From Candidatus Parvarchaeota archaeon (lineage in GTDB: Archaea > Micrarchaeota > Micrarchaeia > Anstonellales > VGKX01): a stretch of DNA of 24,628 nucleotides. The stretch spans positions 1 through 24,628 of the forward strand of contig VGKX01000001.1 of NCBI GenBank assembly GCA_016866895.1, in the 5' to 3' direction. Under the pieces are notes generated by a model that did no database searches, was not told where the DNA came from, and saw only the letters and a program-made list of their open reading frames with translations. Position 1 is the stretch's first letter. Every line of letters begins with the position of its first letter. Position numbers and translations under genes: made by a program. This document shows, piece by piece, positions 1,443 to 7,000 of this stretch.

Positions 1443-3998
1443 CTATTTCGGCTTTTTTTGCCTGCCAGCGGTGTTCGTATCCTTGACAAAGTGCAGGACC
1501 AGAATCTCGATAAACGCAATAAGCGTCCCTGCATAGGGCGTCACAAAAAGGCCTATGAGGGTTGGAAGCACGGCTAGGATAACAGGATAGCTGCCTGGAA
1601 TAGATGACGCTGAGCTGAAAGCAACATATGAGATTAGAAAGAGGATTGCCCAGCTGACAGAATCTGCAGCGGAAGTGGGCTGGAAAAGGGTTTTGCCTGC
1701 ATTGGAAAATGCATTTGAGACCGTCTCCAGCCTAAGATAAGTTGAGAGAGGGACGTCAAAAAGCCCCTGGGTTGGAGCCTGCTCTGAGAGCACGCAGGTG
1801 TTTTTGCTTCCGCAAAAACCTGCACAACAGCCACTTGATGAGACACACGAGCCACCAAGAGGGGTGCACAGAGGAGCCGGAATGCTTGCGCAAAAACCAG
1901 CTTCAGAACATATATTGGAACAGCAGTCTGAATTTTTGGAACACTCAAATCCAGGGCTTTTGCAAACCGAAACGTTTTTTGGCCCGCAAGCCGAAAAGTC
2001 AAGATTCTGCTCGTAGGTCCTGTAGCCCTGCAAATAGACCCGCATTTGATACCGATTTTCCTTTGGCACAAAAGACCAGATGCCCCTCGAGACTGGCTGT
2101 GGGTAGATTGTTTGCGCTATTGACCCTGTCCCGACCTTGAATATCCTGACTTTTGCATCAACATTTTGGCCATTTGATGAGTCCACAACACTAACCCTGG
2201 CCTCGGAATTAATACAAAGCGGCTCTACTGTAACTGAAAAGTCGGAAAGGACTGCGCCGCCGTCTCCGGATTCTTGCAAAACATCCTCATCACCCAAATC
2301 CAAACCCGAATCATTGGTGGCGTTGAGCAGGTCGGTATCCTTTGGCGTGGGCTGATAGGCTTGCTCAGATTCGGTATAGTTGGCAAGTGGGAACAGGTCA
2401 GTGTTGTTGGCCTGGAGAGAGTATGCTGAATTGCAAATGCCATACCCTTCAGAATCTGGACAGGTCTGCGAAAAGCCCGTGCCAGAAGGGTTTGCCCAGA
2501 AGTTTCCCGATATGTAGGGGCCACCCATGATATTGGTGCCAGAAGACACTGAAGTGCTCCACGAATTTGAGAAATTGACTGTGATGTTGAAATTTGCAGT
2601 ATTGTTGAAAAGGTTGTTGTAGAACGTATTGTTGGAGGAAAAATTGACCCTTGCACCGTTTATCAGATTACCGAGGAATTTGCTTGATTTTATTATGTTC
2701 GCAGTTGAATTAAGAAGAAGGATGCCATAGAGATTTTCATTCGAATTGAAATCGGTAAACAAGGAATTGCTTGTGAACAGGACAAAAATCCCATTATTAT
2801 AATGAGTGCTTGAGCCAGAAACGGTTATTGAATTGAAATTTGACCTGCTTGCGTTACAGGCAACAAGCGAAGAAAGTGATATTGAAGAAACGTTTGTCGG
2901 GTAGAAATAATAGCCGATAAGCCTGTTTGAAGAGCCTTTGACGTTTGTCAGGTTATTTGCACATTCGGCGTCAGAACTTGCTGATACCTGGAGGTCATTG
3001 ACCTGGTTTTCAGAAAAGGTGGAATCCGATATGTTATTCAAAAGCGAGGATGAGAGCCAAAGGCCAAATGCTTGATTAGACGTGGAGTTTGTATTGGAGA
3101 CAGAAGTCTCAGTCACGTTTGAAAAGTAAATTCCCGAGGAGACACTTGAGCTGACGGAAATACCGGAAAAGTTGTTTTTAGAAGAGGAGGCGACATGCAG
3201 TCCGTCATAAAAATCGCGTAATTTGCAGTTCTTAATAGTGATGTTGTTAACCCCCACGGCCCTGAACCCGGCCGAATTTTCAATGTCATCACCGTCAATT
3301 GTGTTGCCAAGGCAGTTTATGCTGACGTTTGACGATCGGATTTGGAAGCAGGTTCCTGACTGGTAATCGGTAATGTTTGAGGTTATGTTGTAAGTCCCCT
3401 GCATTGTTATGTCAGTGCAGTTTGTCATGTTTGAATCCGTCCAATTTGCAGTGTAGTTGAAAACAAGCGACACGTTTGCCGAGAGCGGGTCGGAACACAA
3501 AGTCGAATTTGCTGCAAACGAAATTGTTGACAGCTTTTGAAGGTTAGAGGTATTGTTGAAAAATCCGGCCGGGACAAAATAGGCCGCGCTTACAGAAACC
3601 GAATCATTGTCATCAGTATAGTTGAGTGGGCTGCAAAGGGAGAGGGGGGTTGAGGAGCTGTTTGGCAGAGTGTTGAGACCGGATGGCATCCCCGCGCATG
3701 ATGCGTTGGGGGAAGAAAATGTTGTTATAAAAGTGGGCTCATCACCAGTGTTTGTCAGGGAGCTTGCATTGACTGAGAGTGGGGTGTTGCCATTGTTGCG
3801 GATGCTGAAGGCAAAATTATAATAAGAGCCTGAAGTGGTGTTGGGGACATAAAAATACGCCTGGGATGCTGAAATGGCGCAGAGCCTGTTTATGGAGACT
3901 CCGACCTCGCCACTTTGGCTCTGGTTGACTGCAAAGGAAGCAGACAAAAGAAGCTGGATGGCAAAAAGGAACATGGCTGAGATTTTGAAGCAACGCAT
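1443..3998 (-). CDS. Membrane-anchored surface protein (~851 aa): signal peptide, N-terminal disulfide domain, NosD/PbH1 beta-helix module, Ig-like segment, 2 cystine-knot-like motifs, 3 C-terminal TM helices
   Basis: Start moved from ORF-track 4058 to ATG 3998 (MRCFKISAMFLFAIQLLLSASFA = signal peptide; removes overlap with the giant gene). Contains the GNFWANPSGTGFSQTCPD..GICN..Y...D.FPL module end; hydrophobic segments followed by the basic tail GRQKKPK. Confidence 0.9.
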   Translation of the reverse strand: MRCFKISAMFLFAIQLLLSASFAVNQSQSGEVGVSINRLCAISASQAYFYVPNTTSGSYYNFAFSIRNNGNTPLSVNASSLTNTGDEPTFITTFSSPNASCAGMPSGLNTLPNSSSTPLSLCSPLNYTDDNDSVSVSAAYFVPAGFFNNTSNLQKLSTISFAANSTLCSDPLSANVSLVFNYTANWTDSNMTNCTDITMQGTYNITSNITDYQSGTCFQIRSSNVSINCLGNTIDGDDIENSAGFRAVGVNNITIKNCKLRDFYDGLHVASSSKNNFSGISVSSSVSSGIYFSNVTETSVSNTNSTSNQAFGLWLSSSLLNNISDSTFSENQVNDLQVSASSDAECANNLTNVKGSSNRLIGYYFYPTNVSSISLSSLVACNASRSNFNSITVSGSSTHYNNGIFVLFTSNSLFTDFNSNENLYGILLLNSTANIIKSSKFLGNLINGARVNFSSNNTFYNNLFNNTANFNITVNFSNSWSTSVSSGTNIMGGPYISGNFWANPSGTGFSQTCPDSEGYGICNSAYSLQANNTDLFPLANYTESEQAYQPTPKDTDLLNATNDSGLDLGDEDVLQESGDGGAVLSDFSVTVEPLCINSEARVSVVDSSNGQNVDAKVRIFKVGTGSIAQTIYPQPVSRGIWSFVPKENRYQMRVYLQGYRTYEQNLDFSACGPKNVSVCKSPGFECSKNSDCCSNICSEAGFCASIPAPLCTPLGGSCVSSSGCCAGFCGSKNTCVLSEQAPTQGLFDVPLSTYLRLETVSNAFSNAGKTLFQPTSAADSVSWAILFLISYVAFSSASSIPGSYPVILAVLPTLIGLFVTPYAGTLIAFIEILVLHFVKDTNTAGRQKKPK

Positions 3999-7000: not shown

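Follow-up and report, generated by a model that had tools for sequence, protein, structure and literature searches.

A gene pair in the window analyzed here bears on how DPANN symbionts display giant surface proteins that lack an anchor, and on how they grip their hosts. The window comprises 24,628 nucleotides (nt), positions 1 to 24,628 of contig C1 (VGKX01000001.1) in the Candidatus Parvarchaeota archaeon genome GCA_016866895.1 (G000; 1.25 Mb in 255 contigs). One gene encodes a secreted protein of 4,534 amino acids (aa), the giant, whose last domain resembles the first domain of the product of the next gene, the partner. An earlier note on the window proposed that the two domains dock or swap strands, with the partner tethering the giant to the membrane as a two-gene adhesin. 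Our analysis indicates that a strand-swapping fiber system common in these archaea probably keeps the giant on the cell. The more specific arrangement, a donor-strand pilus whose acceptor-only tip is the giant and whose strand-donating base is the partner, the two linked directly or via shaft subunits, has about an even chance of being correct. The features on which it turns are as follows.

4039..17643, minus strand: the giant, 4,534 aa, secreted, with an N-terminal signal region; proposed pilus tip adhesin
4042..4440, minus strand: pilin-like domain at the C-terminus of the giant, aa 4402-4534, with Cys4476/Cys4494; proposed acceptor only
3999..4038, no strand: intergenic gap of 40 nt, from the stop of the giant to the ATG of the partner
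3891..3914, minus strand: donor-like strand of the partner, aa 29-36 (SGEVGVSI), matching the family consensus
3495..3881, minus strand: pilin-like domain of the partner, aa 40-168, with the family pair Cys101/Cys122 and the pair Cys40/Cys168
1443..3998, minus strand: the partner, 851 aa, starting at ATG 3998; proposed pilus base

Sequence comparison identifies the last domain of the giant and the first of the partner as homologous. BLASTP aligned them at 23% over 111 aa (E 4e-7), and their local alignment score of 83 compares with a maximum of 63 in 5,000 shuffles; two other windows of the giant score 67-69, so the pairwise score alone is modest evidence. A hidden Markov model (HMM) of four paralogues, constructed without the partner, retrieved the partner as the best new match among 8,837 open reading frames (ORFs) of the genome (E 0.004). 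A 101-row family profile from which the partner was likewise left out found it again in a search of this genome (E 5.8e-9) and aligned to it in HHalign at 95.4% (E 2e-8). The homology claimed in the earlier note, for which an HMM-HMM alignment had been named as the check, is thereby upheld. The motifs quoted there lie where they were placed, both Cys of the shared pair are invariant across the family, and the two genes are co-oriented with the described 40-nt spacing. In a midpoint-rooted tree of 110 columns, only the grouping of the partner is firm given the root, the few columns and the long branch of the giant's domain: the partner's domain joins partner-type proteins of G001 and G002, sister DPANN genomes of the same family as G000, with support of 100/98, and that of the giant falls among C-terminal copies. 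The possibility that one domain was duplicated locally to give both is rejected on the basis of this tree, in which the two are not sister paralogues.

Profile searches assign the pair to a large unnamed DPANN family that is not private to these genes. They gathered 1,084 clusters; among the best 150, the domain stands alone in 90 (~200 aa), is C-terminal in 50 and is N-terminal in one, the partner itself. Among the genomes sampled, the domain is present in 9 of 301 from Micrarchaeota and in 78 of 151 from Nanobdellota, the phylum that contains Woesearchaeota. G001 and G002 have ~20 copies each, and further copies in G000 are C-terminal (contigs C136 and C98), stand-alone (C206) and N-terminal on a membrane protein (C91). 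Sequence searches of Pfam, NCBIfam and PDB yielded no family name, and a word-index protein search with the giant's domain as query returned no match; by profile, the family falls outside WxL and TasA. We found it described nowhere in the literature on DPANN combined with donor strand or chaperone-usher, of which few subscription papers were covered. In G001, nearly identical copies of the domain form the C-terminus of 17 gene products of 379-1,572 aa, whose passengers vary and whose genes lie singly among housekeeping genes (loci L035-L060 and L077); this looks like a recent expansion of an adhesin repertoire. Six further proteins (P0034, P0039, P0042, P0044, P0045 and P0102) carry a beta-propeller-like or LamG-like passenger within the pilin-like domain itself, at a point that separates the first strands from the core; this is a third mode of decorating the subunit. 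Two Atlas clusters nearest the stand-alone subunit are labeled mostly viral (Uroviricota) and may be misassigned DPANN contigs or phage-borne copies.

The two domains differ in a short N-terminal strand, an asymmetry that the earlier note had not recorded. The strand follows a signal or membrane segment, has the motif G-x-V-x-V-x-I (consensus T-G-T-[VA]-N-[VLI]-T-[IV]) and is present in 78 of 84 stand-alone subunits, a count that is partly by construction since the motif was picked by pattern. Against the strand profile (95th percentile of the background, 6.3), the partner scores 9.0 and the giant 0.7; stand-alone subunits mostly score 7-17.7 and the large Nanobdellota proteins -2.9 to 5.1. 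Among the 17 C-terminal copies in G001, 16 keep the strand and one lacks it. Three classes emerge from this pattern: strand-less tip, shaft with strand and domain, and strand-bearing membrane base. Having the domain without the strand, the giant would thus be acceptor only, a tip adhesin; the partner, with both a strand and a membrane anchor, would act as a base.

Both domains were also modeled. The AlphaFold2 model of the partner's domain has a predicted local distance difference test (pLDDT) score of 85, and its residues 1-18 are confidently placed in no strand pairing, the donor-like strand being unpaired at pLDDT 79-92; the model of the giant's domain (pLDDT 90) has no strand before residue 11. 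Foldseek matches to the partner model are led by the TasA fiber, TLP-1 and PapE (best E 2.7e-3, template modeling (TM) score 0.48), with FimA, CfaB, cannulae, thread and bundling pilin lower. VIA ranks the TasA fiber first (Z 7.5, root-mean-square deviation (rmsd) 4.8, 135/144 residues). Pilin matches lie at Z 6-7.6 and include an alignment of the partner core to the FimH pilin domain (Z 7.6, rmsd 3.4, 97 residues). For the giant, TasA appears at Foldseek ranks 7-11, and its model matches the Peptidase_M73 (TasA) Atlas cluster at TM 0.64. That WxL, TasA and usher-pilus families remain below significance in these lists is no evidence that the folds differ. Complex prediction with the giant and partner domains scored 0.19 against a mark of 0.32 and, run without controls, speaks neither for nor against docking.

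The comparison with G001 bears on the proposed role of the partner as an anchor and involves five additional features.

3930..3998, minus strand: signal peptide of the partner, aa 1-23, assigned by hydropathy, with an inferred cleavage site
1689..2270, minus strand: immunoglobulin (Ig)-like and Cys-rich region of the partner, aa ~577-770, homologous to the C-terminal region of a G001 giant
1485..1658, minus strand: membrane anchor of the partner, aa ~781-838, three hydrophobic segments
7015..11835, minus strand: Ig-repeat stalk of the giant, aa 1937-3543, ~30% identity to the syntenic 4,068-aa G001 giant
584..1381, minus strand: SerK/SbnI-like gene, 265 aa, used as synteny marker; probably outside the system

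From its N-terminus, the partner consists of the signal peptide, which makes it a gene of its own, the donor-like strand, the pilin-like domain, a beta-helix, the Ig domain, Cys-rich repeats and a three-helix anchor; the pair Cys40/Cys168 is an addition specific to its clade and conserved there. The three transmembrane helices described in the earlier note are likely rather than proven, because two of the hydrophobic segments (aa ~781-797, 803-819 and 819-838, with peaks of 1.8, 2.1 and 1.85) are short. Its statement that the giant lacks such an anchor holds by hydropathy, the N-terminal signal region being the sole hydrophobic segment. The giant is built of NosD/Beta_helix modules around the stalk, has 259 N-x-S/T sequons and passes directly from its last beta-helix cap into the pilin-like domain, its stop coinciding with the exact C-terminus of the domain family.

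The SerK/SbnI-like marker gene that follows the partner has an orthologue in G001 with 62% identity. Immediately upstream of this orthologue, G001 encodes one giant of 4,068 aa, which among G001 proteins best matches the stalk of the giant studied here. This G001 protein lacks the domain altogether, and its C-terminal part corresponds to the Ig, Cys-rich and three-helix anchor regions of the partner (BLAST E 1.9e-17 and 2.4e-10); the G001 orthologue of the partner's domain is found two genes upstream of it. Given the shared marker and anchor, the two genes here stand where G001 has one self-anchored giant, and sequence comparison puts the domain pair at the break of a giant gene, giving no direction of change. 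This synteny supports the partner as the anchor, and nature provides at this locus a pair to compare, one giant with a covalent anchor and one split in two with a proposed pilin link between the parts. That the metagenome-assembled genome is fragmented (255 contigs) and the syntenic G001 gene is one ORF might suggest an artefact, namely an anchored giant gene broken by assembly error, or else a chance similarity of Asn/Ser-rich beta proteins. Such an origin is very improbable: the giant stops at the family's C-terminus, the partner has a signal peptide, and the profile tests confirm homology. The two genes are in different reading frames.

Recurrent neighbors of the domain point to a larger system. 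At the head of the core operon of G001 and G002 is a stand-alone subunit; it is followed by genes for a three-Ig protein of 448 aa with a C-terminal helix, for two lipoproteins and for a membrane protein that has the domain N-terminally and a helix C-terminally. The operon is present once in G001 and is split over contigs C206 and C91 in G000, where an HMM from Woesearchaeota homologues alone detects both halves of the three-Ig gene. In the sample of 301 Micrarchaeota, domain and three-Ig protein coincide: a strong full-length three-Ig match was obtained in all nine genomes that have the domain and in no others. These nine span five families, and six were in the query alignment and three were not. 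For Nanobdellota, 20 loci were picked for a large protein with the C-terminal domain: a three-Ig gene lies within one gene after the large anchorless protein in 19, and the 20th is cut by a contig end. One to three stand-alone subunits are usually close by, and the last gene of nine cassettes encodes a membrane-anchored protein with the strand at its start but without the domain; unrelated anchored proteins in those loci carry the strand motif in one of five cases. Four of 12 three-Ig family members weakly match the Pfam family WxLIP_HBD (PF11797; best E 1.8e-4), and no match to PF06030 exceeds the cut-off. No usher-sized gene was seen in the cassettes read, and a genome-wide usher search was not made. 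In Nanobdellota cassettes, a second chaperone-like gene is repeatedly followed by one for a small Ig-like protein (~140 aa); such a protein is encoded in G000 as well (C245:621-1073, L100; E 1e-25), and a domain of this kind ends both lipoproteins of the C91 operon (L032). One cassette, in a record titled 'Methanosarcinales archaeon' (L064), is nearly collinear with a Woesearchaeota locus (L063) including its flanks, and the title is probably a mislabel.

A mechanism can be drawn from the models and from the precedent of WxL, Pam and chaperone-usher pili. All parts would be exported by Sec. Each ~190-aa shaft subunit (encoded on C206 here) would lend its N-terminal strand to the groove of the next, and the membrane-anchored, chaperone-like three-Ig protein, encoded beside the subunit, would hold strand-less domains. 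The giant's domain would then be completed by the strand of either a shaft subunit or the partner, and the helices of the partner would fix the chain in the membrane. The tether of the giant would be a series of donated strands that reaches the partner either directly or through any number of intervening shaft subunits.

Several results weigh against this reading, the first of them structural. The best rows for the giant model are self-complete jelly rolls, namely HA70 domain 3 (Z 8.3-8.5, rmsd 3.4-3.6, 110 residues aligned) and collagen-binding domains, and no match of either model is significant (Foldseek E 0.002 or worse, Z <8.5), so the fold evidence is suggestive only. The closing strand after the partner's domain has a profile score of only 1.7; self-completion in cis by a later strand is thus unsupported, and the partner is not a terminator should its domain prove to have an open groove. 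The jelly-roll matches, and the confidence with which the giant model folds alone, would suit a self-complete attachment module that binds the three-Ig protein, the S-layer or glycans, with giant and partner displayed independently; WxL domains were themselves long thought to be attachment modules. The strand retained in 16 of the 17 G001 C-terminal copies could likewise close its own fold. AlphaFold, however, also folds incomplete pilin domains with confidence, and such a module leaves unexplained the unpaired strand of the partner, the strand-less Nanobdellota giants and the strand-only membrane proteins. We consider it improbable.

A second group of unfavorable results concerns gene order. 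No gene that starts with the domain follows a C-terminal-domain gene in any of the 17 G001 or 20 Nanobdellota loci, so that the co-occurrence envisaged in the earlier note was found at none of these 37, and of the loci examined only the present one shows the head-to-tail order. The partner's domain type is known from five other proteins of 532-568 aa; the four orthologues examined have no C-terminal membrane helix, and their genes adjoin the prolyl-tRNA synthetase gene rather than following a domain-ended giant. These counts bear equally on a dedicated two-gene clasp, in which only these two domains would dock, with neither shaft subunits nor a chaperone. Such a clasp would account for the complementary strand asymmetry, for both domains being short forms without the ~20-residue insertion of the shaft subunits, and for two genes together replacing one anchored giant. 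It is nonetheless quite improbable, given that no second pair was found, that the domains are not sisters and that, in the Micrarchaeota sample, the domain always comes with the chaperone-like gene. The two-gene adhesin of the earlier note therefore survives in part: homology, a donor-strand-type fold (below significance), the strand asymmetry and the syntenic giant's anchor on the partner all favor it, but its dedicated character is unsupported, the conserved neighbors of the domain being the stand-alone subunit and the chaperone-like membrane protein, which here lie on other contigs.

The remaining unfavorable results are a second candidate base in G000, the 386-aa C91 protein, and a second strand-less tip, on C98. 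They leave room for a differently wired version of the same pilus, in which the giant rides shafts of the C206/C91 core operon on the C91 base, the partner is a second base for any tip, and the adjacency of the two genes is a by-product of module shuffling at the giant-gene locus. Scattered tips served by one operon have a parallel in G001, with its 17 single C-terminal-domain genes; the partner's and the giant's domains fall in different groups, those of the G001/G002 proteins and of the C-terminal class, respectively; and the gene order is seen at no other locus. Yet the partner carries the anchor of the syntenic G001 giant and lies 40 nt downstream with no terminator-like site in the gap (3999..4038). 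This version is unlikely, although less so than the attachment module, and the giant-tip, partner-base arrangement is retained in what follows.

Donor-strand pili are already known in bacteria and archaea. The Elr/WxL pilus of Enterococcus faecalis and other Bacilli has an acceptor-only tip, a shaft, a donor-only base and a membrane chaperone, and the system has been found only in Bacillota (doi 10.64898/2026.10.17.759780). The same parts list can be drawn up here, with a similar small-G-V-hydrophobic donor pattern, a conserved adjacent three-Ig protein with a C-terminal helix and the weak WxLIP_HBD matches; WxL is also the nearest named Atlas cluster (0.82), which serves as a lead only. The WxL domain PF13731, however, matches nothing in five genomes including G000, nor any of 101 family members. 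The present system further differs in being archaeal, in its conserved disulfide, in candidate bases that end in membrane helices rather than LPxTG/sortase signals, and in having tips and decorated subunits scattered over the genome.

Pam pili of candidate phyla radiation (CPR) bacteria, reported only from that group, combine donor-strand exchange with the membrane chaperones PamC/D, a strand-less tip, PamT, and a base, PamR, with an N-terminal strand and a C-terminal helix (PMC13278184). They too belong to a small-genome symbiont lineage, and the passenger-strand-domain layout of PamA/B resembles that of the 16 strand-bearing G001 proteins. The Pam tip is a single domain, in contrast to the 4,500-aa adhesin here, and the two systems are likened by description only. 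From chaperone-usher systems (Fim, Pap, CFA/I, Csu), the two-part tip adhesin with a C-terminal strand-less pilin domain is a familiar element; the chaperone-like protein here is instead membrane-anchored, and Pfam fimbrial matches are single weak rows.

Likeness to TasA/TapA and TLP-1 is seen in the fold lists, where the TasA fiber and TLP-1 head the matches to the partner over nearly its whole length, and is accompanied by no sequence match of the family to Peptidase_M73 (PF12389). The domain here is smaller (~140 aa), and a signal peptidase I gene is found in only 2 of 22 Nanobdellota loci and not in the family's core operon. To our knowledge, fused giant adhesins are not a described feature of TasA systems. 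The two signal peptidase I genes, archaeal and SipW-related, lie in or near their cassettes (L082:6349-6816 and L081:9190-9744); subunits of both cassettes have a conserved T-G-x-A motif after the N-terminal helix, which may be the cleavage site of this peptidase. In archaea, AbpB of the bundling pili, a 410-aa protein of three beta domains encoded beside AbpA (PMC9245690), is similar in size and position to the chaperone-like gene.

In the literature consulted on archaeal strand-donation fibers (bundling pili, threads, cannulae and Tat pili), no fold-completing chaperone has been demonstrated; a WxL/Pam-like pathway in archaea would therefore be new. More tentatively, and with a chance somewhat short of even, these genes belong to a chaperone-assisted donor-strand pilus that is widespread in DPANN archaea and present in roughly half of the sampled Nanobdellota, its tips being exchangeable and its adhesins placed in line (~17 per genome in this Micrarchaeota family). 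The locus would then record the conversion of a covalently anchored giant into a detachable tip through an inserted acceptor domain and a donor-bearing base. Shaft subunit, membrane chaperone, tips and bases together would provide a bench-testable answer to how such giants are displayed.

Additional observations concern the partner-type proteins and the rest of the window. A second unnamed C-terminal module, of ~160 aa with an amphipathic helix at its end (L029:7319-10659 and L028:12536-14290), occurs twice in a 534-aa partner-type protein and weakly in the product of a 585-aa gene upstream of a shaft subunit; no match to it was found in G000. The weak SerK/SbnI matches of the 265-aa gene (584-1381, minus strand; E 6e-12) are far under the cut-offs, making it, judging by sequence, a possible free-serine kinase relative in a Micrarchaeon. 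Positions 19794-22136 (plus strand) encode a secreted protein of 780 aa that consists of Ig-like repeats with Cys pairs and matches no Pfam family significantly. At 23524-24048 (plus strand) lies the gene of a 174-aa protein whose signal pattern is of class III (type IV pilin-like), and a gene like it comes after a strand-less tip gene in both G001 and G002 (L060 and L099).

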